Notes under the pieces: generated by a model
What the model was told of the DNA's origin: nothing
Seen by the model: the letters and a program-made list of their open reading frames with translations, nothing else
Database searches by the model: none
In this document: in pieces, positions 3,969 to 19,919 of the stretch
Position numbering within the stretch: the first letter of the stretch is position 1
Layout: every line of letters begins with the position of its first letter
Program-made: the position numbers and the translations under genes
Assembly (NCBI GenBank): GCA_964586255.1
Contig: CAZPGE010000002.1
Coordinates: forward strand, 42,065 to 106,064
Origin: an uncultured Candidatus Saccharibacteria bacterium
Lineage (GTDB): Bacteria; Patescibacteriota; Minisyncoccia; Phycocordibacterales; UBA2100
Reading direction: 5' to 3'
DNA: 64,000 nt

Positions 3969-4061
3969 TCCACTCAATACGTCATGCGCCCATCGTCGTT
4001 TCATATTGAAATCTATTGCCACGTTTCTTCTGCGCGGCCTTTGCGGTGATACTATAAAAGA

Positions 4062-4649: not shown

Positions 4650-4650
4650 T

Positions 4651-5199
4651 ATGAGGAAATTCTTGGTATTCAGCGTTGTTATCTTCGTCGCGCTCGCAAG
4701 TGCGCCGCTTGCACGCGCGGCGCTCACTATCAACGCAAATTTTCTGGCAAAGAGCACTTTCTCAATCACGGGCTCAGTCTCAAAGGGTGCGGGGACGCTG
4801 GTCATCGACCATCCGCTCGACCCAAAAAACAAACTGCTCTACCACTCATTCGTCGAGTCGCCGGATGCCATGAATCAATACAACGGCATTGCGGCTCTCG
4901 ATGAGAATGGCGAAGCAACCATTCAGCTACCGGATTATTTCGAAGCGCTCAATATGAAATTTACCTATCAATTTTTCCCGATGCATGAGGCAATGCCGAA
5001 CCTGCACATTAAACAAAAGATTCAGGACAACGCGTTTACTATCGGGGGCGGGATCCCTGGTGGTGAGATTTCTTGGATGGTCACCGGTATTCGCCACGAC
5101 CCGTACATCCTCGCGAACCCAATTATTCCCGAGGTAGAGAAGGGCCCGGACCAGCTTGTCGACAAGGGTGAGTGTATTTTTGCTCCACTATGCAAATAA
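4651..5199 (+). CDS. Secreted protein, paralog 2 of the same domain family (likely start MRKFLVFS at 4651; the ORF-track start 4606 overlaps the upstream gene)
   Basis: Signal peptide MRKFLVFSVVIFVALASAPLARA. ...IDHPLDPKNKLLYHSFVESPDAMNQY...EISWMVTGIRHDPYILANPIIPEVEKGPDQLV... Confidence 0.7.
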   Translation: MRKFLVFSVVIFVALASAPLARAALTINANFLAKSTFSITGSVSKGAGTLVIDHPLDPKNKLLYHSFVESPDAMNQYNGIAALDENGEATIQLPDYFEALNMKFTYQFFPMHEAMPNLHIKQKIQDNAFTIGGGIPGGEISWMVTGIRHDPYILANPIIPEVEKGPDQLVDKGECIFAPLCK

Positions 5200-6578
5200 A
5201 ATACTTCAGCACGATCTTCGCGATGTTTTTTCTTGCCATACCGGTATCCGCTTCTGCAACCACTATTTTTCTTACCTCCGGCAGCAGTTGGACTGTCCCT
5301 TCCGATTGGGGCACGCCTAATTCCGTCGAATGTATCGCCGCCGGCGGAGGAGGCGGTCGCGGCGGAGGAGGCGCAGGCGGTGGTTACGCCAAAGCGGTAA
5401 ACATATCTCTTACGGCAGGCAGTAGCGTCAGCATAAGTGTGGGCACTGGCGGCGCAGGCAATCTGGGCGGCACGGGTGGTACGGGTGGAACAACATCATT
5501 CGGCAGTGCATGTAGTGCAGGCGGCGGAACGGGCGGGCTGGACGGTTACAACAACACTGGCGCAGGCGGTACCGGAGGCAGTGGAACCGTCGGTTCAACT
5601 TTGCGCACAGGCGGTAATGGTGGTGCGTACGGTGCAGGTTTACCGGGGACCGGAGGTGGTGGCGGTGGCGCAGCGGGAGCTAGTACTAACGGCACCTCAG
5701 GTAGTGCTGGTGTTGGCTTCGCTACCTCTGGTGGCAATGGTGGCGCTGGCGGAGGAGGATCTGGTGGTAGCGGAGGTGCAGGTGCCACTACTATAGGTGC
5801 CGCTGGTGCTGCTGGCGGTACCGGGACTAACTACGATGCCTCTCATGGCTCAGGTGGCGGCGGGGGCGGGGGTCAGGGAAGCTATTGGAGTCCCGGTTAC
5901 AATGCAGGTAACGGCGGCGCCGGCGGCTCGTATGGCGGCGGGGGCGGAGGCGGAGGTCAGGGTTATACCATTGACGGCACAGGCGGGAATGGAGGTGCGG
6001 GACTTATTATCGTCACCTATACACCAAGGTTGCCCTCAGCAAGTCGCGATCTCACGGTGAATGATTCGGTCTCTGTTGCGGGCAATGTCACGGTGGTCGC
6101 CAATCTTGCGAAGGGCTCTGGCACGTTCCTCATCGACCATCCGGCAGATCCCGCCAACAAACTTCTCTATCACTCTTTTGTAGAATCTCCTGATGCGCTC
6201 AATGAGTACGCAGGCACAGCTGAGGTCGGGAAGAATGGTGACGTGGCCATACGACTTCCGGATTATTTTGAAGCGCTCAATGGCAATCCGCAGTATTTTA
6301 TTCGAGCGCTCGATATGCCGATGCCCAATCTCTTCGTCAAACAAGAAGTAAAAGATAATGAATTTGTAGTTGGAGGCGGAAGTCCTGGCGGCGAGATTTC
6401 TTGGATGGTCACCGGTATTCGCCACGACCCGTACATTCTGGCCAATCCCATCATTCCCGAAGTTGAGAAAGGCCCGGACCAGCTCGTTGGCAAAGGGGAG
6501 TATGTGTTTGCGGGGAATGCGCCGACGTGTTCGACGCTCGCTCGTTGTGTGTGGGATTTCATGAGACGGTTCTTCTAG
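5190..6578 (+). CDS. Glycine-rich secreted protein ending in paralog 3 of the 150-aa domain
   Basis: Signal peptide. ...SGSSWTVPSDWGTPNSVECIAAGGGGGRGGGGAGGGY... Long GGxGG low-complexity region. C-terminal ...IDHPADPANKLLYHSFVESPDALNEY...EISWMVTGIRHDPYILANPIIPEVEKGPDQLV. ATG 5190 overlaps the upstream stop. Confidence 0.7.
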   Translation: MQIKYFSTIFAMFFLAIPVSASATTIFLTSGSSWTVPSDWGTPNSVECIAAGGGGGRGGGGAGGGYAKAVNISLTAGSSVSISVGTGGAGNLGGTGGTGGTTSFGSACSAGGGTGGLDGYNNTGAGGTGGSGTVGSTLRTGGNGGAYGAGLPGTGGGGGGAAGASTNGTSGSAGVGFATSGGNGGAGGGGSGGSGGAGATTIGAAGAAGGTGTNYDASHGSGGGGGGGQGSYWSPGYNAGNGGAGGSYGGGGGGGGQGYTIDGTGGNGGAGLIIVTYTPRLPSASRDLTVNDSVSVAGNVTVVANLAKGSGTFLIDHPADPANKLLYHSFVESPDALNEYAGTAEVGKNGDVAIRLPDYFEALNGNPQYFIRALDMPMPNLFVKQEVKDNEFVVGGGSPGGEISWMVTGIRHDPYILANPIIPEVEKGPDQLVGKGEYVFAGNAPTCSTLARCVWDFMRRFF

Positions 6579-6603
6579 ACGCACCTGTACCCAATCGTGC
6601 GCA

Positions 6604-6625
6604 AAATCCCTCTTGCGAGGGATTT
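6604..6625 (+). terminator. Hairpin AAATCCCTC-ttgc-GAGGGATTT
   Basis: Inverted repeat directly after the 6578 stop. Followed by TATACT and the next start. Confidence 0.45.
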
Positions 6626-6639
6626 GGTGATTTATACTA

Positions 6640-7122
6640 GTGTGTATGGATGATCGACGAGAGCTCCTCATCGGCATGGCTGCAATCGCAATATTTGCGG
6701 TCTGCATATACCTGCTCGCAAACATGGGCAAAGCTCCCGCTTCTCCCGCTGATACGATTCCTGCAGCGACACCGATTCCTCCGTACACTGAAAAGATAGA
6801 AGCCGCGCTCGCAAAGAGTGAGGGCTTCGAGATGTTTGTTTCCTACACCGACCGTGGATTCGAGCCTATGAGTACTACAATAAAAAAGGGGGACACGGTG
6901 CGCTTCACCAACAATTCGCCGCGCAAGCTCTGGATAGCGGCGAGCTCCGAAGGTGGCGTGAAGCTCTATCCGGGTACATCGGAGTGCGGCGCAAGCGCAT
7001 TTGGCACCTGCGAACCACTCGAGCCACAAGAATTCTGGGAATTTACATTTACAGAGACTGGTACGTGGAAGTATCACAACAGTCTCAACAAGAGTGATGC
7101 CGCCTCCATACGGGTCCAATGA
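6640..7122 (+). CDS. Small membrane-anchored protein with a possible cupredoxin-like beta domain
   Basis: N-terminal TM helix. ...KKGDTVRFTNNS...WEFTFTETGTWKYHN... resembles a cupredoxin/EfeO-like fold, but the ligand set is unclear. Stop overlaps the next start (ATGA). Confidence 0.45.
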   Translation: MCMDDRRELLIGMAAIAIFAVCIYLLANMGKAPASPADTIPAATPIPPYTEKIEAALAKSEGFEMFVSYTDRGFEPMSTTIKKGDTVRFTNNSPRKLWIAASSEGGVKLYPGTSECGASAFGTCEPLEPQEFWEFTFTETGTWKYHNSLNKSDAASIRVQ

Positions 7123-9080
7123 GAAAATATCTTTTTGTTTTTTTTCTCATATTTTTCCCGCAAATCGCATTTGCGGGTTCGCAGACGTATTCATCGCAAG
7201 GGTCATACACGTTTACGGTGCCAGCTAGTACGTACAGTGTCACCATGCAGATGTGGGGCGGCGGTGGTGGGGCCGGGGGATATGATGCATTGGACCCAGG
7301 ATCGGGCGGGGGCGGAGCCTATACGACCGGTGCCATCACGGTGGTGCCTGGGCAACAAATAACTGTTGTTGTCGGCGGACCAGGGGGTGGAGGCGTGAGT
7401 TGCGCTGCAGGCGGGCCAGGAGGTGCGGGCGGATACAACGGCGGTGCTTCTGGCGGTGCGTCAGGCCCCTATGGCTGTTCTGGTGCCGGCGGCGGTGGGG
7501 GAGGTGCCAGCAGTGTAATCGTAAATGGCGTCACAACTCTTGTAGCCGGTGGCGGTGGCGGAGGTGGAGGTGGTGGCTGGCATGCAGTCGGCGGAGCTGG
7601 CGGTGTTGGTGGAGCGAGCGGTGCAAGCGGCAATGTCACGACTGGCGGAGCAGGAGAGGCACATTCGTTTGACGGTGGTGGCGGCGGCGGAGGAGGTGGA
7701 GGCATAGCTGCTGGCGGCGGCGGAGGAATTGCGGGATGCGACTGCGGTGGTACCGGTGGTACCGGTGGTTCATCGCTCGGCACCGTGACACAAGGCTCAG
7801 GTATATACCCTGGAAATTATGGCAGCTCAGGTGGTTATGGATATGGGGGGCAGACGTATGGTCAATCCGGAACGTCGGGTAGAATCGACGTCACGTGGAC
7901 AGTGACCGCCCCCACCTGCTCCGTCACTCTCACACCCTCCACCATCGGATACGGTTCTTCCTCCACGCTCACCTACTCTTCTACCAACGCGACCACTCTC
8001 TATATAAACAACATCGGGTACGTGAGCACGAGTGGGGGAAGCACATCAGTCTCGCCATCGTCAACGACAAATTATTCATGCACAGCCACCGGTCCGGGGG
8101 GCACGGGCACGCAAGCGGCATCGCTCACCGTGACAGCACCGTCTGTCCCATCCGCCACCATCACCGCAAGTTCTTCTGCTATATACGTCGGACAATCGAC
8201 AGGTATCCGTGCGACATTTGCTGCCGGTTCCGGTGACACACTCACCGGAGACAACATAGATTCGCCAGTCGGCACCGGTCTCGGTGCGTCGACCAACCCC
8301 GACGCCAACAAGTGGTACACATTCACGCCATCTTCCGCGGGCACGTACACGTTCTACGCTCGCGCAAAGAGTGCGTACTACACGTCGTGGACCACATACG
8401 GCACCGTAGCGGTCACCGTGACGGCGGCACCCGCGTGCACACTCTCGCTCACTCCCTCCACCGTCGCACAGGGAAATTCATCTACACTCGCATACTCGTC
8501 GAGCAACGCGACTACATTCTCTGTGAGTAGCATTGGCTCTCTCACGCCCAACATCTCCGGGAGCACCAGTGTGTCTCCGAGTGTCTCCACCACCTACACG
8601 GGTAGTGCCACCGCCGGGGGAGTCACCAATACCTGCTCCGCCACCCTCTCTGTCTCCTGCACCGCCGCATACTCCTGCTCAAGTCAGACCATCCAGTACA
8701 CTGACGCCGCGTGTGCAGTCTCCGACGTCACCACCTGTGCCTCTCCGGCATTCTGCTCGAGCGGCTCCGCGACCTGTCTCTACGCACCCGTCGAGTACGT
8801 CGCAAGCGGAAGCCTCACTGGTCACCTCCAAGCAGCACCACAAATCGTCACGCAAGGAACAGCCACGAGGCTCTACTGGAATCTCAGCAACGTAGAGAGC
8901 TGTACCGTCACCGGTACCAACGGTGACTCATACTCCGGTGCTGCTTCTCCCACAGGAGGACGACAGACCTCCACGATTGAGCAACAGACCATCTACACCC
9001 TTTCCTGTGCTGGCTCCGACGGCTCCAGTGTGCAGGAGACACAGACCGTGAATATACTGCCGGTGTTTAATGAGCAATGA
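7119..9080 (+). CDS. Glycine-rich surface protein with tandem Ig-like domains (653 aa)
   Basis: Signal peptide MRKYLFVFFLIFFPQIAFAGSQTYSSQGSYTFTVPASTYSVTMQMWGGGGGAGG... C-terminal 389 aa are identical to the next gene. Ig-like repeats (..TLTPSTIGYGSSSTLTYSSTNAT..YSCTATGPGG..). Ends ...NILPVFNEQ. Confidence 0.7.
   Translation: MRKYLFVFFLIFFPQIAFAGSQTYSSQGSYTFTVPASTYSVTMQMWGGGGGAGGYDALDPGSGGGGAYTTGAITVVPGQQITVVVGGPGGGGVSCAAGGPGGAGGYNGGASGGASGPYGCSGAGGGGGGASSVIVNGVTTLVAGGGGGGGGGGWHAVGGAGGVGGASGASGNVTTGGAGEAHSFDGGGGGGGGGGIAAGGGGGIAGCDCGGTGGTGGSSLGTVTQGSGIYPGNYGSSGGYGYGGQTYGQSGTSGRIDVTWTVTAPTCSVTLTPSTIGYGSSSTLTYSSTNATTLYINNIGYVSTSGGSTSVSPSSTTNYSCTATGPGGTGTQAASLTVTAPSVPSATITASSSAIYVGQSTGIRATFAAGSGDTLTGDNIDSPVGTGLGASTNPDANKWYTFTPSSAGTYTFYARAKSAYYTSWTTYGTVAVTVTAAPACTLSLTPSTVAQGNSSTLAYSSSNATTFSVSSIGSLTPNISGSTSVSPSVSTTYTGSATAGGVTNTCSATLSVSCTAAYSCSSQTIQYTDAACAVSDVTTCASPAFCSSGSATCLYAPVEYVASGSLTGHLQAAPQIVTQGTATRLYWNLSNVESCTVTGTNGDSYSGAASPTGGRQTSTIEQQTIYTLSCAGSDGSSVQETQTVNILPVFNEQ
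7911..9077 (+). repeat. Copy 1 of a perfect 1167-bp direct repeat (offset 1808 bp)
   Basis: Nucleotide identity from cccacctgctccgtcactctc... to the last sense codon. All internal six-frame ORFs are duplicated with identical translations. Divergence only at the stop (TGA vs TAG). Confidence 0.9.
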
Positions 9081-10888
9081 AAAAGTATCTCTTCATTCTT
9101 TTGTGCGTGTTTCTTCCGCAGGTTGCACTTGCGGGTTCGCAAACGTATTCGACTCCCGGCAGCTACTCTTTTACCGTGCCGTCGCATGGGACGCTTACAG
9201 TTACGGTGTGGGCCGGTGGTGGAGGAGCCAGCAACTATTATGCCGCCAACTATCCTGGACAAGCCGGTGGAACGTCATCTTTCAATGGAAGTGTAGTGGC
9301 ATACGGAGGCGCAACGAGCGACGTGTGCGGTTTCGGCGCTGGCGCGGGAGGAACCGCCTCGGGAGGAGACAGTAATTATACGGGTGGTGCGGGTGGTGCG
9401 GGCTCCGGGAAATCAGTCGGAGGAGTTGGAGGAAATGGCGCAAACGGTGGTGGAGCCGGGGGAGCTTATGATTACTCTACACTCAATGGTCTCCCTGGAA
9501 GCGCGCCAGGTGGCGGTGGAGCGGGACGCGCGGGCTGTGACGGCGCTGGCGGTGGCGGCGCTTCGGTTAAGACATACACATCTGGCCAACTCACCGTAGG
9601 CGGCTCCGTGTCTGTGGTTGTCGGTGCCGGTGGAGTCGCGGGGGTTGCCCCTATTTCATTGTCGGCTGGTGCCGGAGCGCCTGGTCAGGTCACCATCACC
9701 TGGACTGACCCACCTGTACCCACCTGCTCCGTCACTCTCACACCCTCCACCATCGGATACGGTTCTTCCTCCACGCTCACCTACTCTTCTACCAACGCGA
9801 CCACTCTCTATATAAACAACATCGGGTACGTGAGCACGAGTGGGGGAAGCACATCAGTCTCGCCATCGTCAACGACAAATTATTCATGCACAGCCACCGG
9901 TCCGGGGGGCACGGGCACGCAAGCGGCATCGCTCACCGTGACAGCACCGTCTGTCCCATCCGCCACCATCACCGCAAGTTCTTCTGCTATATACGTCGGA
10001 CAATCGACAGGTATCCGTGCGACATTTGCTGCCGGTTCCGGTGACACACTCACCGGAGACAACATAGATTCGCCAGTCGGCACCGGTCTCGGTGCGTCGA
10101 CCAACCCCGACGCCAACAAGTGGTACACATTCACGCCATCTTCCGCGGGCACGTACACGTTCTACGCTCGCGCAAAGAGTGCGTACTACACGTCGTGGAC
10201 CACATACGGCACCGTAGCGGTCACCGTGACGGCGGCACCCGCGTGCACACTCTCGCTCACTCCCTCCACCGTCGCACAGGGAAATTCATCTACACTCGCA
10301 TACTCGTCGAGCAACGCGACTACATTCTCTGTGAGTAGCATTGGCTCTCTCACGCCCAACATCTCCGGGAGCACCAGTGTGTCTCCGAGTGTCTCCACCA
10401 CCTACACGGGTAGTGCCACCGCCGGGGGAGTCACCAATACCTGCTCCGCCACCCTCTCTGTCTCCTGCACCGCCGCATACTCCTGCTCAAGTCAGACCAT
10501 CCAGTACACTGACGCCGCGTGTGCAGTCTCCGACGTCACCACCTGTGCCTCTCCGGCATTCTGCTCGAGCGGCTCCGCGACCTGTCTCTACGCACCCGTC
10601 GAGTACGTCGCAAGCGGAAGCCTCACTGGTCACCTCCAAGCAGCACCACAAATCGTCACGCAAGGAACAGCCACGAGGCTCTACTGGAATCTCAGCAACG
10701 TAGAGAGCTGTACCGTCACCGGTACCAACGGTGACTCATACTCCGGTGCTGCTTCTCCCACAGGAGGACGACAGACCTCCACGATTGAGCAACAGACCAT
10801 CTACACCCTTTCCTGTGCTGGCTCCGACGGCTCCAGTGTGCAGGAGACACAGACCGTGAATATACTGCCGGTGTTTAATGAGCAGTAG
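9077..10888 (+). CDS. Glycine-rich surface protein, paralog with a different N-terminal domain and identical C-terminal half (603 aa)
   Basis: MKKYLFILLCVFLPQVALAGSQTYSTPGSYSFTVPSHGTLTVTVWAGGGGA... ATGA overlap with the upstream stop. The 3' 1167 bp are identical to 7911..9077. Confidence 0.7.
   Translation: MKKYLFILLCVFLPQVALAGSQTYSTPGSYSFTVPSHGTLTVTVWAGGGGASNYYAANYPGQAGGTSSFNGSVVAYGGATSDVCGFGAGAGGTASGGDSNYTGGAGGAGSGKSVGGVGGNGANGGGAGGAYDYSTLNGLPGSAPGGGGAGRAGCDGAGGGGASVKTYTSGQLTVGGSVSVVVGAGGVAGVAPISLSAGAGAPGQVTITWTDPPVPTCSVTLTPSTIGYGSSSTLTYSSTNATTLYINNIGYVSTSGGSTSVSPSSTTNYSCTATGPGGTGTQAASLTVTAPSVPSATITASSSAIYVGQSTGIRATFAAGSGDTLTGDNIDSPVGTGLGASTNPDANKWYTFTPSSAGTYTFYARAKSAYYTSWTTYGTVAVTVTAAPACTLSLTPSTVAQGNSSTLAYSSSNATTFSVSSIGSLTPNISGSTSVSPSVSTTYTGSATAGGVTNTCSATLSVSCTAAYSCSSQTIQYTDAACAVSDVTTCASPAFCSSGSATCLYAPVEYVASGSLTGHLQAAPQIVTQGTATRLYWNLSNVESCTVTGTNGDSYSGAASPTGGRQTSTIEQQTIYTLSCAGSDGSSVQETQTVNILPVFNEQ
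9719..10885 (+). repeat. Copy 2 of the 1167-bp direct repeat
   Basis: Same as copy 1. Confidence 0.9.
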
Positions 10889-11124: not shown

Positions 11125-12327
11125 ATGGCAGCAGAAGAATTCAATCGAACAAAGCCGCACGTGAACGTCGGTACGATTGGTCACGTCGACCACGGAAAGA
11201 CCACGCTCACTGCAGCAATCCTCACGGTGCTCTCGAAGGCCGGCCAAGGCTACGGTGCTACGGTGAAGGGCGTCGATGACATCGACAAGGCGCCGGAAGA
11301 AAAGGCGCGCGGTATTACCATCTCGCTCTCGCACTCCGAGTACGAGACGCCGACGAGACACTACGCTCACGTCGACGCTCCTGGTCACGCCGACTACATT
11401 AAGAACATGATCACCGGTGCCGCCCAGATGGACGGCGCAATCCTCGTCATCGCAGCGTCGGACGGCGTCATGCCTCAGACACGCGAACACGTCCTCCTCG
11501 CCAAGCAGGTCGGCGTGCCAAAGATGATCGTCTTCCTCAACAAGGTAGACCAGGTGGACGACAAAGACCTCATCGACCTCGTCGAAGAGGAAGTCCGCGA
11601 CTTGCTCGAGAAGCAGGGCTTCGACGGCAAGAACACTCCGATAATCCGCGGCTCAGGCCTCAAGGCTCTCGAGAATCCGGAGCAGGGCAACGAGTGGTCG
11701 GACAAGGTCATGGAGCTCATCAAGGCGCTCGATGAATACATCCCAACACCGGAGCGCGACACCGCAAAGCCATTCCTCATGGCTATCGAAGACGTCTTCT
11801 CAATCGAAGGCCGCGGCACCGTCGTCACGGGCCGCATCGACCGCGGTATCGTGAAGGTCGGCGAAGAAGTTGAAATCATCGGTATTCACGACACAGCCAA
11901 GACGACTGTGACGGGTGTCGAAATGTTCAACAAGTCTCTCCAGCAGGGGCAGGCCGGCGACAACGCAGGCATCTTGCTCCGCGGTACCAAGAAAGACGAC
12001 GTCCACCGCGGACAGATTCTCGCGAAGCCGGGCTCTGTGAAGCCGCACACTGAATTCGAGGCAGAGGTATACATCCTCTCCAAGGAAGAAGGCGGTCGTC
12101 ACACTCCGTTCTTCTCGGGCTACAAGCCACAGTTCTACGTCCGCACCACGGACGTGACGGGCGAAGTGACCCTCAATGAGGGCGTAGAGATGGTGATGCC
12201 GGGCGACACCGTGACCTTCAAGGTCAAGCTCGTCGCTCCCATCGCCCTCGAAGACCAGATGCGCTTCGCAATCCGCGAAGGCGGCAAGACCGTCGGCGCA
12301 GGCGTCGTGACCAAAATCACCGCCTAA
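11125..12327 (+). CDS. tuf: Elongation factor Tu
   Basis: [18 protein letters not shown] and NKVD motifs. Full-length 400 aa. Confidence 0.97.
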
Positions 12328-13594: not shown

Positions 13595-13628
13595 GCATTT
13601 TGCACGGCGGATTCGGGCGGTCAAACTT

Positions 13629-13661
13629 AAAAAACGGCTTAAAAACCCCAAGAAATCAAAA
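13629..13661. repeat. Linker repeat aaaaacggcttaaaaaccccaagaaatca (copy 1; also at 16217 and degenerate at 17887)
   Basis: Exact 29-nt match with 16217..16245. Confidence 0.7.
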
Positions 13662-13747
13662 GCCCGCGGAGTTTGACCTTTGCCCTCGGGTGAGGAAAGA
13701 TACCTGCGGAGACATCTCCACAGTGGTCAACAAAAGGGGAGGACCTC

Positions 13748-13975
13748 ATGGCGCCCATTCTTCGTTCCCGACTGCAGAACCCCAAGGCGTGGTCGCACTG
13801 GTTCGCGTGGCACCCGGTGTGGACCGTGAAGTACGATGGCAACCAACGCCCGGGTCGCTGGCGTCTGGCATGGTTTCGCGAGGTGCTGTGCCGCCGGAAG
13901 CATCGCGTGACTATCGGCCCGATTTCGTTCACGCGGTGGGACTACCAGGTTGGCATGCCCGTCGGGGGCACCTGA
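13748..13975 (+). CDS. Small Trp-rich hypothetical protein (75 aa)
   Basis: Strong RBS GGGGAGGA 5 nt upstream of the ATG. Flanked by repeat elements. No recognisable homology. Confidence 0.3.
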   Translation: MAPILRSRLQNPKAWSHWFAWHPVWTVKYDGNQRPGRWRLAWFREVLCRRKHRVTIGPISFTRWDYQVGMPVGGT

Positions 13976-14005
13976 TCCGCATCGTTCTCTGGAAGCCGAC
14001 ATCAG

Positions 14006-14055
14006 CGGCCGCGTTCGCGCGGCCGTTTTGCTTTGTATAAAAAACGGCTAAGAAA
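14006..14055 (+). repeat. Recurring terminator-like element CGGCCGCGTTCGCGCGGCCG+TTTTGCTTTGTATAAAAAACGGCT (copy 1 of 4)
   Basis: GC hairpin plus T-run. Near-identical copies at 16184, 16802 and 17798, each downstream of a small gene. Confidence 0.7.
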
Positions 14056-14142
14056 TTTATCCCGTTAGAGGCGAAAGCTCTCTAATGGGACCCCAAGAAT
14101 TCATGGCGATGGATTTGGTGCCGGGAATGATATCGTAATCCT

Positions 14143-14730
14143 ATGGAATCGATATTAGATTTACCCGGGAGATTCATTATTTACGATACCGAGTACACTA
14201 CGTGGGAAGGGGCTCCGGAAAGAAAATGGAGTGGTCCCGGAGAACATAGGGAGCTCGTACAAATCGGTGCGATTGTCGTAGATGGAATCGAGATGCGCGA
14301 ACTTGAATCCTTTGAAATCTTGATGAGGCCTCGTTTAAATCCCGCGTTATCTGGTTTCTTTGTATCGCTCACTGGTATCACCCAAGAACAAGTCGATAGA
14401 TACGGTGTCGAATTCCCTCAAGCGTGGGATATATTCTCGAAGTGGCTGCATGGTCTTCCCGCATATTCTTATGGCCGTGGTGACCTGGAAGTTTTGAAAG
14501 AAAACTGCGGTATATGGCATCTCGAATTCAGACTTGATGAGAGTTTTTTTAGAGACATCTGCCCTGTCTTTGACGGAAACGGCATCGATACAAGTCAGTA
14601 CCATTCCTCTACCATTGTGACTGCATTCGGAAGCACTCCGAGAAAGGAGTCACACACCGGACTGAGTGATTCCCGGTCTATATTGGATGCGCTGAAGCTC
14701 CTGCGGGCGGTACAGCAGCACAAGTCATAA
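14143..14730 (+). CDS. DEDDh-type 3'-5' exonuclease (DnaQ-like)
   Basis: Exo I IYDTEYT. Exo III H-x4-D (HTGLSDS). Confidence 0.7.
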   Translation: MESILDLPGRFIIYDTEYTTWEGAPERKWSGPGEHRELVQIGAIVVDGIEMRELESFEILMRPRLNPALSGFFVSLTGITQEQVDRYGVEFPQAWDIFSKWLHGLPAYSYGRGDLEVLKENCGIWHLEFRLDESFFRDICPVFDGNGIDTSQYHSSTIVTAFGSTPRKESHTGLSDSRSILDALKLLRAVQQHKS

Positions 14731-14801
14731 ATTCTTGCCGCAGGAAGTGTACTGTGATATCGAGGGGGTAGGCACATTGAAACTCTAGTGAGGAGGATGA
14801 G

Positions 14802-15248
14802 ATGGTGGGAAAAGTCCGTTTTTTACCGCCGCCAAAAGGTTGTCCTGAACATCTCTCGCGTCAAGCGGAGTTGATGCACGCATTAAGGCGTTGGGCCAAT
14901 ATTGTGTACGCGCAGTACGGAGTGCCCGTGTATCTCTGCGGCTCCGTGTTGAAACATGATGTAAATGATCCTCGCGATTGGGACGTGAGGATTCGCTTAC
15001 CGAAGGCTCAGTTTGCGGTACGGTACGGATCACCTGAAGTTTGGTGGGAAGAGGGTCAAACCGGCTTCTGGTCCTCTATTAGATGGCGCTGGGTAGATGA
15101 CTGCAAGAAGCAAGCACGCAGAGGTGCAAAGTACACGGGGCTCAACATAGACTTCGAAGTACATCCGCCGATGTTTTGGGATCGTCACCGAAGCGAACCA
15201 AAGCTTCGCATCGATACTAGGAGGGAAAGATGGAAGAGAAGAACATAG
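14802..15248 (+). CDS. Putative minimal nucleotidyltransferase-fold protein
   Basis: LCGSVLKHDVNDPRDWDVRI resembles the GS...DxD NTase motif. Weak. Confidence 0.35.
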   Translation: MVGKVRFLPPPKGCPEHLSRQAELMHALRRWANIVYAQYGVPVYLCGSVLKHDVNDPRDWDVRIRLPKAQFAVRYGSPEVWWEEGQTGFWSSIRWRWVDDCKKQARRGAKYTGLNIDFEVHPPMFWDRHRSEPKLRIDTRRERWKRRT

Positions 15249-16177
15249 CACTCATCAGCAGCGCGCGTCCATCAATGCTCAGGCTCAGTCTAACTTGCGT
15301 ACTTGAGCAGACATTGCCATTCCATCGAGTTGTCGTAGTGGCATGGGGTCAAGATTTGGAGAGCGTAAGGCGTGAAGCAGAGACGCATAGTCGTGTAGAA
15401 GTGGTCACAGCGGGGAGTGTCGGCTCAGCATCAAAGCACAGAAATCTTGGTCTAGCGTACGCGAGTAAGTTCAAGCCCAAGCACGTAGCCTTCATCGATG
15501 ACGACACCTTTCTCGATAAAGCGTGGCACTTCTCAGTTGCGCGCGCCGCACAGATGTCGAAAGGTCAATGCAGTGTCGGCGGAATCGTGATGTTTGCTTC
15601 AGACTGGTCGAAGATCCAAAGTGGCGGACATGTTTTTACGTCGTATCGACCAAGAGACATTGGGTACGGAGCAGATGCGAGCGAGGACTTGTCTCCTCAG
15701 GTGCAGTACGACGATCCAGATACTTTTACCTGTCCCTGTGCAAACTCAGCATTTGTCTCTTGGACTGCACTCGAGACGATTCGACGTATCGATGGAGCAT
15801 ACTGGGATGAACGTTTCCCTCGACTGACATGCTTTGAACTAGGCTTTAAACTTCATCGCCTCGGCCAAGGATATGTAATTGCTCCAGGTGCTCTTGCAGC
15901 GCATGATGGATACCTCCATCGTAAAGCGCTTCGAAAACATGACGCGGTTGAGCAGCTGTTGTCGCGCATGCTCTTGTACCGCAAGTTCCTCCCCGCTGCA
16001 CGAGCCATAGAGGCACTGCAAGATCTGGATGCGAGGGTTGTTCGTTGGGCAACACACGGGTACCCCAGTTCTCGGCTGAATAGCAGAGAAGTCGTGGATG
16101 CTTACAACGAAGCTTTGGCATTGGCTGAGCAGTGCACATTCGACGAAAAGTGGCGCACCTTAATAGCCACGGAATGA
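15230..16177 (+). CDS. Family 2 glycosyltransferase (GT-A)
   Basis: N-terminal GT2 signature plus DxD (FIDDDTFL). Confidence 0.6.
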   Translation: MEEKNIALISSARPSMLRLSLTCVLEQTLPFHRVVVVAWGQDLESVRREAETHSRVEVVTAGSVGSASKHRNLGLAYASKFKPKHVAFIDDDTFLDKAWHFSVARAAQMSKGQCSVGGIVMFASDWSKIQSGGHVFTSYRPRDIGYGADASEDLSPQVQYDDPDTFTCPCANSAFVSWTALETIRRIDGAYWDERFPRLTCFELGFKLHRLGQGYVIAPGALAAHDGYLHRKALRKHDAVEQLLSRMLLYRKFLPAARAIEALQDLDARVVRWATHGYPSSRLNSREVVDAYNEALALAEQCTFDEKWRTLIATE

Positions 16178-16183
16178 TGGAAA

Positions 16184-16247
16184 CGGTCGCGTTCGCGCGG
16201 CCGTTTTGCTTTGTATAAAAAACGGCTTAAAAACCCCAAGAAATCAG
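16184..16247 (+). repeat. Hairpin/linker repeat copy 2 (cggTcgcgttcgcgcggccg ttttgctttgtataaaaaacggcttaaaaaccccaagaaatca)
   Basis: Direct sequence match to 14006.. and 13629.. Confidence 0.7.
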
Positions 16248-16324
16248 GGCAATAGATTCGGTGCTCGCGTGTGTTGATTTTCCGCGATTGTCGGGGCATA
16301 GTCTGCCGACGTCGGCATTAACCC

Positions 16325-16786
16325 ATGGGGGAGGCGATGATGTTGAACTTCGACGAGTTCCTTGGCATGTTCGATCCCAAGAATCCGTTCACGCCGCGTG
16401 CCGTTCGGCAGATGCGGACCTTCAACGCGGACGACTCGATGCTCTTCAAGAAAAAAAGCAACGATCTCGTAGAGGTCGTGGAGGACTTTTGCTCACGAAA
16501 GGCGTTCCCGATCGTGGACAAGCGTCTCGGTGTCGTGCTCGGTGTTGGCGATGGGTATCATCGGCTCGTGCGTGCGCTGCTGTTCAACTACAACACCAGT
16601 GACCCCAAGGAGCCCGATGTACCGCCCGCGAGTATTGAAAACGCCTCGACATGGTACCTGATGAACGGTAGCGGATACTTCATCTCCGCTATGCGCCCGA
16701 GGGTCATCGTCGCTGGCCATGAATATCGGGAAGATCGGTTCGACAAAGATCTATTCCAGCTCTACGAGGTGGACAGGACTATTTGA
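16325..16786 (+). CDS. Hypothetical protein (153 aa)
   Basis: ORF bounded by repeat elements. No recognisable motif. Confidence 0.35.
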   Translation: MGEAMMLNFDEFLGMFDPKNPFTPRAVRQMRTFNADDSMLFKKKSNDLVEVVEDFCSRKAFPIVDKRLGVVLGVGDGYHRLVRALLFNYNTSDPKEPDVPPASIENASTWYLMNGSGYFISAMRPRVIVAGHEYREDRFDKDLFQLYEVDRTI

Positions 16787-16801
16787 CGTCTCTGTCAGAA
16801 T

Positions 16802-16852
16802 GGCCGCGCGAGCGCGGCCGTTTTGCTATTACATAGAACAGTTCTCTGTAAG
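16802..16852 (+). repeat. Hairpin repeat copy 3 (GGCCGCGCGAGCGCGGCC ttttgctattacatagaacagttctctgtaa)
   Basis: Shares the catagaacNgttctctgtaa motif with 17872..17891. Confidence 0.65.
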
Positions 16853-16858
16853 TGCAAT

Positions 16859-16882
16859 CCTCATATCCTTAAGGATATGAGG
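16859..16882. promoter_or_regulatory. Perfect 24-bp palindrome CCTCATATCCTTAAGGATATGAGG
   Basis: Exact reverse-complement symmetry. Lies upstream of the 17005 small ORF. Confidence 0.5.
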
Positions 16883-17004
16883 ATATCGCATGCCCGTCTG
16901 GCGAGGGTGAAAGCAGGTCTCAATGCGGTAGTCAGGGTTTCTGTTGACAAAGCTTCGGGCAGACCGCATATTCATCGCGGCATTCCGCCGCAAGGAATAG
17001 AGAG

Positions 17005-17268
17005 ATGACTGACTTTCCGTTCGGAATCAACCCGGGGCTCCCTCTCCCGGGGAGTCTCGCACATGCGAGCGTCGAGATCGAAGGAGTAGGCGGCATGAGT
17101 TTCGCGGACCCTCAGGAATCGGTCGGCGGGCTCGTGGCGCAGGTGCTCGCAATGAGCACGGGCGAATCTCGCAACGGCGGTGTGGACTTCTTCGCGGTCA
17201 CCGCGTGGGACGCTGAAGCAGGTCACCTCACCGTCAAGTTGAACGACACCGAGGTGCGCGCCGCGTGA
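17005..17268 (+). CDS. Hypothetical small protein (87 aa)
   Basis: ORF followed by a perfect hairpin terminator. Confidence 0.3.
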   Translation: MTDFPFGINPGLPLPGSLAHASVEIEGVGGMSFADPQESVGGLVAQVLAMSTGESRNGGVDFFAVTAWDAEAGHLTVKLNDTEVRAA

Positions 17269-17300
17269 AGCGAGAATGCGCATGTACGTGCGCGAAGGCC

Positions 17301-17329
17301 GGAGCTCAGCTCCGGTCTTTTGATTTTGT
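17301..17329 (+). terminator. CCGGAGCT-c-AGCTCCGG hairpin plus TCTTTTGATTTTG
   Basis: Direct inspection. Confidence 0.5.
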
Positions 17330-17431
17330 AACACTCTAGAAGTTCGGGAGTTATGCATGTCACCGACACGGTCGTTGTTAAGGGAGTGTAGGTAGTGGGC
17401 AATTCTTGCGTCTGTCGAGCCGCGTGGCATA

Positions 17432-17770
17432 GTGCCGCTCAGGAACAACGTGCGAGGACATTCCATGCCGAAACATTTCGAGGCCGCTAAGGTCACCGAT
17501 GAAGAGTGGTCGCAAATTGAAGCAGCGTTTGCGACCAGTGCACTGGTCCGAGTTGTGAAACAGATGCGCTCTCTGAACAACGCCCCGCAGAAAGCGGGCG
17601 ACATCTTCCCGCCACATCAGGACAATTACGGACACGAGCTCGTGAATACGTTTTTGCGCAAAGGAAAGCTGTCCTTTCGGTTCACCAGGACCGAGCCGCA
17701 AAAGCAGGAGCACCGGTCCGACCGCAAGCTCGCATTTGTCCGTTGGGGCGACGCGGAGCAGGCTCCGTAA
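17432..17770 (+). CDS. Hypothetical small protein (likely start MPKHFEA at 17465)
   Basis: ORF followed by hairpin repeat copy 4. Confidence 0.3.
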   Translation: MPLRNNVRGHSMPKHFEAAKVTDEEWSQIEAAFATSALVRVVKQMRSLNNAPQKAGDIFPPHQDNYGHELVNTFLRKGKLSFRFTRTEPQKQEHRSDRKLAFVRWGDAEQAP

Positions 17771-17797
17771 GCCAAGGCTGTACATGCCTGCCGAAAG

Positions 17798-17936
17798 CGG
17801 CCGCGTTCGCGCGGCCGTTTTGTTTTTTTGCTATAGCGATGCCTCGCTGCCTACGTTTTTTCATAGAACGGTTCTCTGTAAATACCGGAAAAACGGCCTA
17901 ATCCGCCAGGTGGTGGATCCAAGAAATCAAAAGGCC
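17798..17936 (+). repeat. Composite repeat copy 4 (hairpin + catagaacggttctctgtaa + degenerate linker)
   Basis: cggccgcgttcgcgcggccg identical to the copy at 14006. Confidence 0.65.
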
Positions 17937-17984
17937 ACGCAGGTGCGTGGTCTTTCTATTTCGGCGTAAATACTGTACGTTCTT

Positions 17985-19436
17985 GTGATGCCAGGTAAAG
18001 AAACAGTTGTCCGCTTCGAAGATGTCACCTTCGAGCATGGGCCCAAGCGGCCCATTCTTGATGAAGTGAGTTTCGGTGTGAAAAAAGGCGCGAAGCTCAC
18101 GCTCATGGGACAAAACGGCGCGGGGAAGAGCACCATATTCGGTCTCATCACCAAACACCTGCATCCAGAGGAGGGCGTCATCCATGTCTCACATGGGCTC
18201 TCGATAGCCACGGCGCGGCAGGTTATCCCGCGCGCGGAGCTCGCGCTTACCGTGCGCGAATTCTTTGAGAAGATGTTTCCGAAGAAGATATACGACATCG
18301 ACCCGCGTATCGACAAGGTGCTCGAGGTGGTGCATCTCCATGCACCCAAAGAGCGCACGGTGGGCTCTTTTTCGGGCGGGCAGCAGGCAAGGCTCCTGCT
18401 TGCTTCGGCGCTCATCCAGGAGCCCGACCTCCTCCTCCTCGACGAGCCGACCAACAATCTCGACAAAGAGGGAATCGCGCACCTGACTGATTTCCTCGTG
18501 AAGTACGACAAGACCGTCATTGTGATTTCGCACGATGCCGACTTCCTCAACGCATTCACACACGGAGTCCTCTATCTCGATGTGTTTACGCGCAAGGTAG
18601 AGCAATACGTGGGCAACTACTTCGATGTGATGGACCAAATAGCCGACCGCATCGAAAAGGAAAACATGAAGAACGCGCAGTTGGCCAAGACAATTATCGA
18701 AAACAAGGAGAAAGCCAACTTTTTTGCACACAAAGGCGGGCAGATGCGCCTCGTGGCTAAGCGTATGCGCGCAAAGGCCGAGGAAGCGGAGGAAAATATG
18801 GTGGATGTGCGCAAAGAAGACAAGACCATCAAGGATTTCAAGATACCCGTGCAAGACGGTCTCTCGGGCGAGCTCATATCCATCACGTCATTCAAAGTGA
18901 TTCGCGACCACAAGCCGCACATTAAAAAGAAATCAGTCGCACTCCGAAAGAATCAGCACCTTCTGCTCTCCGGTCCCAACGGTATCGGCAAATCGACGCT
19001 GCTTGAATCTCTCGCGAGTGGTACCGCGGAAGGTGCAGTCATCGCGCCGGGCGTCAAAGTGGGCTACTACCGCCAAGATTTCTCAAATCTCGATTTCGAT
19101 GCGACGGTGCACGACATCCTCTGGCACACGATGCCAAAGGGATATGAGGAAGAGCTGCGCGCTACCGCCGCGAGCTTCTTGCTTACCGGTGATCTCGTCC
19201 ACACCAAAATTGGCCATCTCTCGGAGGGGCAGAAGGGGCTGGTCGCATTTGCGCGTCTCGTGCTTCTGAAGCCTGGCCTCCTCATCCTCGACGAGCCGAC
19301 CAACCATATCAACTTCCGCCATCTTCCTGTCATCGCCAAAGCACTCGATGCCTATGAGGGCGCCATGATACTGGTCTCGCACGTACCAGAATTCGTCTCT
19401 CAAATCCGTATCGACGAGAAGCTCGAGCTCGCTTAG
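17985..19436 (+). CDS. ABC-F family ATPase (two ABC domains, no TMD; EttA/Uup-like)
   Basis: Two Walker A motifs (GQNGAGKST, GPNGIGKST). Two signature/Walker B motifs (LSGGQQ...LLLLDEPTNNLD, LSEGQKG...LLILDEPTNHIN). Confidence 0.85.
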   Translation: MMPGKETVVRFEDVTFEHGPKRPILDEVSFGVKKGAKLTLMGQNGAGKSTIFGLITKHLHPEEGVIHVSHGLSIATARQVIPRAELALTVREFFEKMFPKKIYDIDPRIDKVLEVVHLHAPKERTVGSFSGGQQARLLLASALIQEPDLLLLDEPTNNLDKEGIAHLTDFLVKYDKTVIVISHDADFLNAFTHGVLYLDVFTRKVEQYVGNYFDVMDQIADRIEKENMKNAQLAKTIIENKEKANFFAHKGGQMRLVAKRMRAKAEEAEENMVDVRKEDKTIKDFKIPVQDGLSGELISITSFKVIRDHKPHIKKKSVALRKNQHLLLSGPNGIGKSTLLESLASGTAEGAVIAPGVKVGYYRQDFSNLDFDATVHDILWHTMPKGYEEELRATAASFLLTGDLVHTKIGHLSEGQKGLVAFARLVLLKPGLLILDEPTNHINFRHLPVIAKALDAYEGAMILVSHVPEFVSQIRIDEKLELA

Positions 19437-19494
19437 GCGAAAGGGGCGGGGATATTGCCTTTTTTGGGGCTTTAGTGCATACTCTGCGGGTTCT

Positions 19495-19857
19495 ATGACA
19501 GCGGAATCGACAGCGAAAAAGACTCGCTCTAAGGCGAAGAAGGCCGATGGAGCAAGTCGCCTGCGCATCAAAGTGCGTGCTTATGAGCACGGTGTCCTCG
19601 ATGGTGCGGTCAAGCAGATAATCGATGTCGCCGCTCGTCACAATGCCGAAGTTATCGGCCCTGTCCCGCTCCCCATCGACATCAAGAAATACACCGTCAA
19701 CCGCGCCTCTTTCATCGACAAGGATTCGCGCGAACAGTTTGAAATGCGCATCCACAAGCGCATGATTGATATCCTCAATCCTGCTGCGAAAGTGATCGAG
19801 GCTCTCACCAATATCGACCTGCCATCCGGCGTCTCGATAGACGTGAAGATGATGTAA
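19495..19857 (+). CDS. rpsJ: 30S ribosomal protein S10 with N-terminal Lys-rich extension
   Basis: ...RLRIKVRAYEH...KQIIDVAARHNAEVIGPVPLP...EMRIHKRMIDI... Confidence 0.93.
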   Translation: MTAESTAKKTRSKAKKADGASRLRIKVRAYEHGVLDGAVKQIIDVAARHNAEVIGPVPLPIDIKKYTVNRASFIDKDSREQFEMRIHKRMIDILNPAAKVIEALTNIDLPSGVSIDVKMM

Positions 19858-19866
19858 ATCCAAAAT

Positions 19867-19910
19867 CAAAAGGCCCGCGTCCGTCGACTGACGGAGCGGG
19901 CCTTTTGATT
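19867..19910. terminator. Bidirectional terminator hairpin between rpsJ (+) and the convergent methyltransferase (-)
   Basis: AAAAGGCCCGC...GCGGGCCTTTTGATTT. Confidence 0.6.
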
Positions 19911-19919
19911 TGCGTGGCC

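Follow-up and report, generated by a model that had tools for sequence, protein, structure and literature searches.

Repeated terminator-like hairpins and linkers in a variable gene island between tuf and rpsJ of a Patescibacteria chromosome

What is the same hairpin doing behind one unrelated small gene after another, between tuf and rpsJ? The question is raised by a 64-kb stretch of DNA (the window, throughout) on contig CAZPGE010000002.1 of assembly GCA_964586255.1, from an uncultured Candidatus Saccharibacteria bacterium. The window's genome is of the Paceibacteria/Parcubacteria type within the Candidate Phyla Radiation (CPR), and its nearest named relatives are the metagenome-assembled genomes (MAGs) 'Parcubacteria group bacterium Athens0416_74', 'Candidatus Pacebacteria' and 'Ca. 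Kaiserbacteria'. On its left the island is bounded by tuf and on its right by the gene for an ABC-F ATPase, with rpsJ behind it, and all genes there lie on the + strand in the window. A first-pass annotation of the letters had described small-gene cassettes delimited by a hairpin and a linker, and had compared them with integron attC arrays or with terminators propagated by miniature inverted-repeat transposable elements (MITEs). We lean, without great confidence, towards a different answer: the repeats would be composite terminator, spacer and promoter modules in a hyperplastic stretch of the chromosome, where they keep autonomous units insulated and supply homology for their shuffling.

Hairpin H1, linker L and the module they form

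We compared the window with 11 loci of related genomes, 181 kb in all and read on both strands. This set covers 64 kb of the source genome and at most 20 kb per relative, in genomes of roughly 1 Mb. The relative loci are labelled L006, L034, L037, L040, L047 (GCA_964594735.1), L049, L050, L051 and L052 where they need to be told apart. The 6.9-kb arrangement described here is 99.985–100% identical in independent assemblies and is therefore no assembly artefact.

The 20-nt GC hairpin CGGCCGCGTTCGCGCGGCCG, called H1 here, is found exactly at 14006 and 17798, with one mismatch at 16184 and with a variant loop at 16801/16802. Each copy lies 3' of an open reading frame (ORF), as the first-pass annotation had stated, 7–31 nt past a stop codon (13975, 16177, 16786 and 17770). 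All 4/4 copies fall within 4.4 kb (13.6–18 kb), with 0 in the remaining 59.6 kb at up to three mismatches, against a chance expectation of 0.03. They share the tail TTTTG(C/T)TTT, 10–13 paired positions and a 4-nt loop, and they fold at −19 to −22 kcal/mol (z of −2.6 to −4.4). A GC-rich stem of at least 5 bp, a short loop, a U-tract and a place 3' of an ORF on the coding strand are the sequence marks of intrinsic terminators, and we infer that all four copies are such terminators. The window has further hairpins that look like terminators, namely those that follow tuf, the 87-aa gene and rpsJ and about eight others, and their stems are unrelated to H1, so the H1 copies are homologous and not convergent. 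The copies are as follows.

14004–14037 (+): H1 copy 1, stem-loop 14006–14025 plus TTTTGCTTTG; −19.4 kcal/mol, 0/200 shuffles as stable
16180–16215 (+): H1 copy 2, one mismatch; −19.0 kcal/mol, z = −3.3
16796–16828 (+): H1 copy 3, same stem with loop GCGAGC, palindromic on both strands; −22.2 kcal/mol, z = −4.4
17794–17830 (+): H1 copy 4, 20/20 identical to copy 1; −21.7 kcal/mol

The second repeat is the 29-nt linker AAAAACGGCTTAAAAACCCCAAGAAATCA, or L, which is exact at 13630 and 16218 (chance expectation 0.00). The repeat first placed at 13629 and 16217 is thus real and one base off. The copy once called degenerate and placed at 17887 also exists, at 17889–17929, where it is the same motif split by a 16-nt palindrome. 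The earlier list was incomplete, as it missed a fourth copy whose motif spans 14040–14103 and is split by a 32-nt hairpin. These copies, together with the hairpin H2 that follows L at one site, are given below.

13628–13669 (+): L copy 1, TAAAAAACGGCTTAAAAACCCCAAGAAATCA, then the decayed left arm of H2, AAAAGCCCGCGG; 95% match to L006 3359–3402
14038–14142 (+): L copy 2, interrupted by a 32-nt hairpin (14059–14090) and continued as CCCCAAGAATTCATGGCGATGG; candidate −10 box before the exonuclease gene
16216–16264 (+): L copy 3, 31/31 identical to copy 1 by sequence comparison, continued as GGGCAATAGATTCGGTGC
17889–17929 (+): L copy 4, interrupted by the 16-nt palindrome TCCGCCAGGTGGTGGA (17902–17917); the same insertion is present in five L047 copies
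17929–17961 (no strand assigned): H2-type bidirectional hairpin AAAAGGCCACGCAGGTGCGTGGTCTTTCTATTT just upstream of the ABC-F gene; −25.1 and −21.4 kcal/mol on the two strands; the same position is filled in L047

Hairpin H1 and linker L are parts of one homologous mosaic boundary module. Read through the relatives, its order is the H1 terminator, a U-tract, AAAAACGGCTTAA, an optional small palindrome, CCCCAAGAA(A/T)TC, and then either H2 or a promoter. The full module stands between convergent genes in L047: H1 with its U-tract, GTATA(C), AAAAAACGGCTTAA, optionally the 16-nt palindrome TCCGCCAGCTGGCGGA or a longer hairpin, CCCCAAGAAATCAAAAG, H2 and CTTTCT. A hairpin of about 32 nt (ATCCCGT.AGA...TCTAATGGG) occupies one fixed point of L in three genomes (window 14059–14090, L047 6965–6995, L051 6475–6505). 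This variant of L fronts different genes in each, namely the exonuclease unit in the window, RelB/YafQ in L047 and a 101-aa ORF in L051; L copy 2 is 80% identical to L047 6946–7023, which lies upstream of that RelB/YafQ unit.

An alignment of eight H2 copies keeps the hairpin, with three compensated pairs. H2 has an A-tract upstream and a T-tract downstream, and is therefore a bidirectional terminator by prediction. It appears to close − strand genes in L006 and L047, and on that strand L would form its U-rich tail. Where the next gene is on the + strand, a promoter stands in the place of H2. In the window H2 is kept only upstream of the ABC-F gene, with a remnant at 13658–13669. The predicted promoters that replace it are of two types. 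One, module P, consists of GTTTGACC, 17 nt, AAAGAT and a leader hairpin, and also precedes three + strand units in L006 and one in L037. The other is a TGnTATTGT-type −10 box 6–9 nt before the ATG, a spacing that suggests leaderless mRNA.

Promoter module P also accounts for an inverted repeat of 9 bp that had been reported to bracket the linker. The two arms exist, at 13619–13627 and 13670–13678, without being significant (z = −1.7; 15/200 shuffles as stable). The right arm is the −35 element (GTTTGACC) of the recurrent promoter and the left arm is absent from relatives, and we regard the pairing as fortuitous.

Could the L, H3 and H2 segment, H3 being the small palindrome, instead be a multicopy small RNA (sRNA) gene? 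It would use a TATAAA box after H1 as promoter and the C-rich stretch CCCCAAGAAAUCAAAAG as seed, and its paralogues would regulate island genes. Two highly conserved single-stranded blocks lie between the hairpins, H2 has a U-tract on the + strand too, the orientation is uniform, and conservation exceeds that of the coding neighbours. We nevertheless hold this to be very improbable. H3 shows compensatory changes in 0/6 pairs, no Rfam family matches at the gathering threshold (with only chance-level hits at E ≤ 1), and the promoter is weak against the consensus. Moreover, many copies, including 3/4 in the window, lack H3 and/or H2 yet keep L intact.

The distribution of the repeats is narrow. 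A profile search with L gave 28 hits at E ≤ 2.4, all of them inside the tuf-to-ABC-F interval and on the + strand, even beside − strand neighbour genes, and none in the ~135 kb of DNA flanking that interval in the window and the 11 loci. Within the 181 kb, then, the repeat does not follow unrelated genes outside that interval. A hairpin scan of GTDB representatives, a set from which the source genome is absent, gave 27 chance hits in GC-rich Proteobacteria and others, and three Paceibacterota hits, one of which is L006 at the orthologous locus. The L motif found one relevant contig in a scan of JGI metagenomes, of the L037 type, plus one chance hit in a coding region. In IMG/VR, three of four repeat patterns, L among them, were without a match, and six matches to the Pal pattern (described below) were by chance, in unrelated contexts. 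By blastn the region matched none of 50,697 phage and 72,556 plasmid records, and so nothing there points to a phage or plasmid origin.

These results bear on a mobile origin, whether as the MITE-propagated terminators first proposed or, more broadly, as a non-autonomous mosaic repeat spread by a transposase encoded elsewhere that seeded the island's spacers. Repetitive extragenic palindromes (REPs) and bacterial interspersed mosaic elements (BIMEs) of enterobacteria, and BOX elements of pneumococci, are dispersed over whole genomes, with tens to hundreds of copies in either orientation, and REPs have a link to RAYT transposases. The island modules share their mosaic build of palindromic units and short, conserved linkers, their extragenic position at gene 3' ends or between convergent or tandem genes, and their potential to terminate or to stabilise mRNA; in addition, hairpins are optionally inserted at fixed points of L and copy identity is very high. 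Unlike REP, BIME or BOX elements, every copy seen here lies in one locus and in one orientation (a partial test of dispersal, since the 181 kb are not complete genomes), and the metagenome scan finds the motif at the orthologous locus only. An alignment of the copies is without terminal inverted repeats or target-site duplications, and the sole flanking inverted repeat is the insignificant one at 13619/13670. Neither the annotated genes of the related arrays nor the scanned ORFs of the window yielded an integrase, a transposase (Y1 or otherwise) or any other recombinase; the window scan leaves out the ORFs at 1299–10888 and 55322–58135, and about eight of its ORFs had no Pfam hit. MITE propagation is rejected on these grounds, and we consider a mobile repeat of any of these types distinctly unlikely.

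Other palindromes accompany the modules. The second motif of the first-pass annotation, CATAGAACNGTTCTCTGTAA, does recur, at 16832 and 17862 rather than at 16833 and 17872, and is itself an 11+1+11 palindrome, here called C. It looks like an operator. A further palindrome, Pal, follows the first C copy.

16829–16851 (no strand assigned): C palindrome copy 1, TTACATAGAAC A GTTCTCTGTAA; operator-like, also in L034 and L037
17859–17881 (no strand assigned): C palindrome copy 2, by sequence comparison
16857–16884 (no strand assigned): Pal palindrome, 12+4+12, ATCCTCATATCC TTAA GGATATGAGGAT; folding z = −7.5

The general form of C is TTACATAGAAC-N-GTTCTCTGTAA, located between a terminator and the next unit, and it is also found at L034 2587–2609, at L037 2524–2543 and at about L037 3450. 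The Pal family (CTCATAT.CTT..G.AT(A/G)TGAG) lies upstream of unit promoters and recurs at L006 4580–4612 and 6531–6563 and at L037 1031–1064 and 3478–3510. Across three Pal variants both arms change in concert and the palindrome is kept. Pal may form a hairpin, be the core site of a recombinase, or bind paralogous dimeric regulators as their operator.

A side observation concerns terminator tails. The tail motif CTTTTGATTT is common to several otherwise unrelated terminators, among them that of the 87-aa gene and H2, which suggests a terminator tail typical of the lineage.

Units of the island and their turnover among relatives

In the window the interval reads SoFic, the 75-aa gene, an exonuclease/148-aa/GT2-like group, the 153-aa gene, the 87-aa gene and the 101-aa gene. 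Its flanks, genes and predicted promoters are listed here.

11125–12327 (+): tuf (EF-Tu), conserved left flank; ORF and Pfam domains on the identical ENA contig; 95% nt identity to L006
12356–12382 (+): tuf's own terminator, AAAACCCGCCGCAAGGCGGGTTTTCTT; stem unrelated to H1; kept after tuf in L006 and L034
12470–13594 (+): SoFic-type Fic defence gene, in the first and most variable slot; gene-caller start at 12497; GC 0.445 against 0.55 for the window
13671–13723 (+): promoter module P (TTGACC at 13673–13678, 17 nt, AAAGAT) and 5'-leader hairpin (13704–13723), upstream of the 75-aa gene; predicted from the consensus only
13748–13975 (+): 75-aa Trp-rich ORF; codon-position differences 0/0/10 (L034) and 11/10/36 (L006); only two protein clusters known
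14143–16177 (+): low-GC three-gene unit with an RNase_T/DEDDh exonuclease (14143–14730), a 148-aa ORF (14802–15248) and a GT2-like 315-aa ORF (15230–16177)
16274–16304 (+): candidate promoter of the 153-aa gene (TTGATT, 17 nt, CATAGT), read from the sequence
16325–16786 (+): 153-aa ORF; distant 149-aa homologues in the L006 (34% aa identity) and L047 arrays
16944–16972 (+): predicted promoter of the 87-aa gene (TTGACA, 17 nt, CATATT); the region's best sigma-70 match, 10/12; kept in L006, L037 and L040
17005–17268 (+): 87-aa ORF; codon-position differences 4/6/21; orthologues adjoin tuf in the distant L040, where there are no repeats
17294–17328 (+): terminator of the 87-aa gene, beginning GGCCGGAGC; stem unrelated to H1; homology with L037 stops at 17330
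17406–17435 (+): candidate promoter of the 101-aa gene (TTGCGT, about 17 nt, CATAGT); similar sequence ahead of the L037 orthologue
17465–17770 (+): 101-aa ORF; 72% aa identity to the L037 orthologue; codon-position differences 22/13/54
17985–19857 (+): ABC-F ATPase gene (17988–19436) and rpsJ (19495–19857), conserved right flank; orthologous flank in L047, L049, L050 and L051

As predicted from these features, each gene or short operon would be an autonomous unit with its own promoter and terminator. Differences between orthologues concentrate at third codon positions, which marks the small ORFs as genuine genes; the 149-aa homologues of L006 and L047, for example, have 77% aa identity and differ by 25/14/78 at the three positions. 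There were no hits to the small ORFs in Pfam, PHROGs, PADLOC, NCBIfam or PDB sequences that would indicate a function. The last ORF, first given as 112 aa, is a real gene, and probably begins at ATG 17465 rather than at GTG 17432, because gene callers on the identical contig give 101 aa and the predicted −10 box GGCATAGTGC (17426–17435) falls inside the longer ORF.

Of the larger genes, the Fic and DEDDh labels of the first-pass annotation are solid. The Fic gene has the Pfam domains Fic, Fic_N and SoFic-like_C and is a full-length SoFic by PADLOC (E = 2.4e-106); its low GC suggests recent acquisition, and its slot next to tuf is filled by other genes in relatives. Pfam and PADLOC agree on the DEDDh/RNase_T exonuclease. 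The label 'GT2' (family 2 glycosyltransferase) does not hold at the Pfam threshold, with 20.3 bits against a cut-off of 23.3. 'NTase-like' (nucleotidyltransferase-like) was also without database support: the 148-aa ORF had no hit in any library scanned, and a single-sequence AlphaFold2 model had a pLDDT (predicted local distance difference test) of 37 and is unusable. A G-S...D-x-D motif (LCGS...DWDVRI), noticed by eye, is the one hint that this ORF encodes a minimal nucleotidyltransferase. The 19-nt overlap between this ORF and the GT2-like gene suggests that the two are translationally coupled.

The tuf-to-ABC-F/rpsJ interval is a hypervariable hotspot, as at least seven relatives carry different gene sets there. 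L006 (tuf 95% nt identical) has a HigB-like/HTH pair, DUF6941, a 245-aa gene, three − strand genes, a 149-aa gene, a 94-aa + 75-aa pair, and genes of 118 aa and 87 aa. L034 has an SDH-type protease, genes of 86 aa and 137 aa, and a 78-aa + 75-aa pair. L037 together with L052 holds a reverse transcriptase, a 78-aa + 75-aa pair, genes of 87 aa and 131 aa, DUF4260, a 103-aa gene, GFA, Cyt-b5 and a 137-aa gene. At least 15 genes including RelB/YafQ are found in L047, 13 including NUDIX and RelB/YafQ in L051, two (glyoxalase and a 135-aa gene) in L049, and a TIR-domain protein in L050. In L040, the most distant relative, repeats are absent and the interval holds nothing but VIT1, a 91-aa gene and an 85-aa homologue of the 87-aa gene. 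Because L040 keeps this homologue without the repeats, the 87-aa gene is an old, ancestral resident of the tuf–rpsJ interval and the H1/L family is specific to a sub-clade.

The locus therefore shows the same core flanks, differing contents among relatives, and recognised defence and toxin-antitoxin (TA) genes, which together are the marks of a defence hotspot. The cargo is typical of defence islands and TA systems and, in these CPR genomes, comprises the reverse transcriptase (RVT_1) at L037 2–919 (−), a CAP12-PCTIR TIR protein at L050 5421–6464, HigB-like/HTH at L006 1366–2133, and RelB/YafQ at L047 7048–7615 and L051 5901–6450. A further locus of the same type, L038, has a reverse transcriptase ORF on the − strand upstream of an L motif at 740–760. 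Two parts of the first-pass annotation stand here: the block is an accessory, defence-type island, and one homologous 3' boundary element is re-used across its unrelated genes. The contents of the island differ strongly among relatives.

Such an array invites comparison with integrons, or with any cassette platform in which the hairpin, Pal or the L palindromes would be sites for an integrase encoded elsewhere. As in an integron, fixed flanks adjoin a variable array whose genes are mostly small and carry a recurring structured element at each 3' end, and the 12+4+12 layout of Pal is that of serine-recombinase crossover sites. The array is, however, flanked directly by tuf and ABC-F/rpsJ, and no intI, attI or Pc was found there, nor a GTTRRRY/RYYYAAC pair at the boundaries. 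Neither the scanned window ORFs nor the annotated genes of nine related arrays include intI or a tyrosine or serine recombinase, and there is no tRNA or tmRNA as an integration target in the 64 kb. H1 is a canonical intrinsic terminator with a perfect 8-bp GC stem, a tetraloop and a U-tract. It is not an attC hairpin, which would be an imperfect palindrome of 57–141 bp, and it has no R''/L''/L'/R' organisation, R''/R' cores, extrahelical bases or GTTRRRY core. Integron cassettes share one orientation, lack promoters and are driven by Pc; the units here have their own predicted promoters and lie on both strands (in L006 and L047), and the boundaries shift in position instead of keeping to a single fixed nucleotide. 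The attC-like logic first proposed does not survive these findings, and a site-specific platform of any sort is largely refuted and extremely improbable.

Recombination, inheritance or a dedicated system

If no integrase or transposase is at work, what moves the units? Breakpoints between relatives lie at the modules. Blocks shared across genomes are single transcription units, from promoter to terminator tail (13748–14034, 16936–17330 and 17424–17827). Homology between the 75-aa unit and its orthologous unit in three relatives stops at 14034, and homology between the 101-aa unit and L037 stops at 17827. The close pair L006 and L037 (92–97% identical) differ by insertions and deletions of whole units, one of them exactly between a terminator stem and its T-tract.

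The similarity of units also does not follow that of the backbone. With L034 the 75-aa unit shares 95.5% identity and the 3' end of tuf 93%; with L006 the same unit shares 77% and tuf 95%. RelB/YafQ of L047 and L051 are 81% identical, against 76% for ABC-F. For the hairpins, take the H1 copy behind the 75-aa gene and the one behind the 101/103-aa gene. In the window these two are identical, as they are in L037, but window and L037 differ from each other at the same two positions in both (TTCG vs CTCG in the loop, GGCCG vs GGTCG in the stem). Likewise, the L047 copies after the unrelated 183-aa and 149-aa genes are identical. H1 is homogenised within genomes and divergent between them, a pattern that indicates gene conversion.

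Direct repeats suited to such exchange are present. The three-gene unit, whose GC is 0.47–0.52 and which no relative examined carries, is bracketed by direct H1–L repeats of 50 nt that are 94% identical (14006–14055 and 16184–16233). The length of these tracts, like that of the 31 nt shared by L copies 1 and 3, is sufficient for homologous exchange. As near-identical tracts of 30–110 bp, all in direct orientation, the modules could mediate it.

We therefore return to the proposal of insulating, recombining modules, which would work as follows. The tuf–ABC-F/rpsJ interval would act as a hotspot that gathers accessory, toxin-antitoxin and anti-phage genes, each unit comprising a sigma-70-type promoter, one or more ORFs and a strong intrinsic terminator. 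H1, with a GC stem of 8–13 bp, a tetraloop and a U-tract, would terminate + strand units; the A-rich spacer L would come next, and then either H2, terminating − strand units, or the promoter of the next unit. The modules would insulate the units from one another and from the highly expressed tuf and S10 operons. Their near-identical direct tracts of 30–110 bp would serve as substrates of homologous recombination and gene conversion, so that whole units could be gained, lost, replaced and reordered at module boundaries with no need for a dedicated recombinase.

A simpler account would deny the modules any causal part in the shuffling. They would be ordinary terminators and spacers, left by old segmental duplications or arriving with the units, and the shuffling would come from illegitimate recombination or independent insertions into a permissive, non-essential intergenic hotspot. 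The hotspot is in fact equally variable in relatives without H1/L or with faint traces of it (L049, L050 and L040), the one well-resolved insertion junction has only a 6-nt microhomology, CCGGRG, and all assemblies of the strain are structurally identical. Passive inheritance does not fit well with the homogenised H1 paralogues within genomes, with the identical direct repeats of 31–50 nt around the three-gene unit, which exceed the length for RecA-type exchange, or with the stronger conservation of L than of adjoining coding DNA. We consider it fairly unlikely.

Several points weigh against recombining, insulating modules. Terminator and promoter activity is predicted from sequence and folding, recombination between modules is deduced from patterns, and the concerted-evolution signal comes from few short sites. 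No deletion variant or circular junction was observed, and four independent assemblies of the strain share one arrangement. The census covers 181 kb, and copies may also lie elsewhere in these genomes of roughly 1 Mb. In two other Paceibacterota MAGs (L012 5047–5084 and L021 255–295), a near-identical hairpin, ACGGCCGCGCTTGCGCGGCCGTTTTGTTTGCTATACT, stands between an unrelated gene and nusB, outside the tuf locus, and is followed by a TATACT box as another terminator-plus-promoter junction. Hairpins of this GC-palindrome type, serving as ordinary terminators, may thus arise easily in the clade.

Finally, L is conserved far beyond what a U-tail or hitch-hiking would need. It matches 30/30 positions in L006 and 28/29 in L047 and is still recognisable in L051, where ABC-F is 76% identical at the nucleotide level, so an additional function is probable. 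L and the palindromes H3, Pal and C may bind a protein, act as a small RNA or serve as sites of recombination. L, perhaps with H3, Pal and C, might be the recognition element of a dedicated system acting on the tuf–rpsJ array, either by capture of promoter-bearing cassettes through a recombinase encoded elsewhere or as a multicopy sRNA (from L to H2) that co-regulates defence and toxin genes. This idea is decidedly improbable in our estimate; if true, it would mean a previously undescribed genome-plasticity or regulatory device in Patescibacteria.

Related systems and genomic surroundings

The closest parallel to the proposed modules comes from phages. Promoter-early stem-loops (PeSLs) are mobile regulatory cassettes in hyperplastic regions of T4-type phages, and their promoter and terminator activity and minicircles have been shown experimentally (Arbiol et al. 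2010, PMC2839356; Comeau et al. 2014, PMC4122927). The island modules resemble them in combining a stem-loop terminator, an AT-rich tract and a sigma-70-like promoter (by sequence: H1, the A-rich L, and P or the TGnTATTGT-type −10). In both, the repeats are many and cluster in hyperplastic regions that are full of small ORFans and lie between core-gene blocks, indels and replacements between close relatives are bounded by the motifs, and homologous recombination between copies is proposed. In contrast to PeSLs, the modules lie on a cellular CPR chromosome, at a single locus in the str/S10 neighbourhood (fusA, tuf, rpsJ and ribosomal-protein genes) with no phage genes. Their order also differs, with the terminator followed by a long conserved A-rich spacer with optional palindromes, and then an antisense terminator or a promoter. 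Phage and viral collections gave no match that would support homology with PeSLs, and we regard the modules as an apparent analogue of PeSLs and not a member.

Phage 'morons' are autonomous promoter-gene-terminator units. The island units resemble them as self-contained accessory genes with predicted promoters and factor-independent terminators of their own between unrelated neighbours; unlike morons, they lie outside a prophage, and their flanking regulatory sequences are homologous from unit to unit.

Core defence hotspots between conserved genes are also known, such as the cDHS of Pseudomonas aeruginosa (Johnson et al. 2023, PMC10250203). The island shares their fixed site between core genes, strain-specific defence and TA sets (here SoFic, reverse transcriptase, TIR, HigB/HTH and RelB/YafQ) and lack of obvious mobile-element hallmarks. 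It differs in lying in the translation-gene cluster of a CPR bacterium, in having a homologous terminator/spacer module as punctuation, and in consisting mostly of tiny lineage-specific ORFs. The locus belongs to none of the PeSL, moron, BIME/BOX or defence-hotspot families, being cellular and co-oriented, restricted to a single locus, and with no sequence similarity to any of them.

Members of the CPR, or Patescibacteria, carry very small genomes and are believed to live on other cells, and the exchange and regulation of their accessory genes is poorly known. Here a fixed hotspot inside the genome's most conserved neighbourhood (fusA–tuf–rpsJ–rplC) turns over defence, TA and tiny lineage-specific genes, apparently unit by unit and with the same terminator/spacer/promoter kit at each boundary. 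This modular-kit logic has earlier been described for T4-type phages, in their hyperplastic regions, and is not known from a cellular chromosome. If confirmed, it would give streamlined genomes a simple way to shuffle genes as modules without a recombinase, would provide a ready set of candidate CPR promoters and terminators, and would make tuf ... ABC-F/rpsJ a landmark for mining strain-specific accessory and defence genes in CPR metagenomes. Island predictors call tuf and ribosomal-protein genes 'horizontally acquired' in Patescibacteria (PMC12455944), and such calls may reflect embedded hotspots like the tuf–rpsJ island.

The surrounding str/S10 translation cluster (window 1–42600) is broken three times by accessory DNA. 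It runs from fusA (88–1239) through a 9.6-kb block of secreted Gly-rich proteins, tuf, the island, ABC-F, rpsJ (19495–19857) and a ~20-kb block to rplC (39965), and the same interrupted frame is seen again in relatives L040 and L051. The terminator of rpsJ (19862–19911) is a perfect bidirectional hairpin between AAAATCAAAAGG and CCTTTTGATTT. The ~20-kb block before rplC encodes a methyltransferase, an SSF transporter, two YcaO proteins, a nitroreductase, a PQQ beta-propeller, a QueC-like protein, tetratricopeptide-repeat (TPR) proteins, a thioredoxin and a rhodanese. It looks like a pathway for a ribosomally synthesized and post-translationally modified peptide (RiPP) of the thiazole/oxazole-modified microcin (TOMM) type.

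Within the 9.6-kb block, the adjacent genes at 7119–9080 and 9077–10888 encode large Gly-rich secreted proteins whose C-terminal half (~390 aa, from ...TCSVTLTPSTIGYGSSSTLTYSS... to ...NILPVFNEQ) is apparently identical in the translations. A recent tandem duplication would explain the identical halves; otherwise the assembly has been collapsed or expanded at this place. Upstream of these, at 4062–6578, three successive genes (195, 197 and 468 aa) have a common C-terminal domain with the motif LLYHSFVES...ISWMVTGIRHDPYILANPIIPEV and form a paralogous family of secreted proteins.

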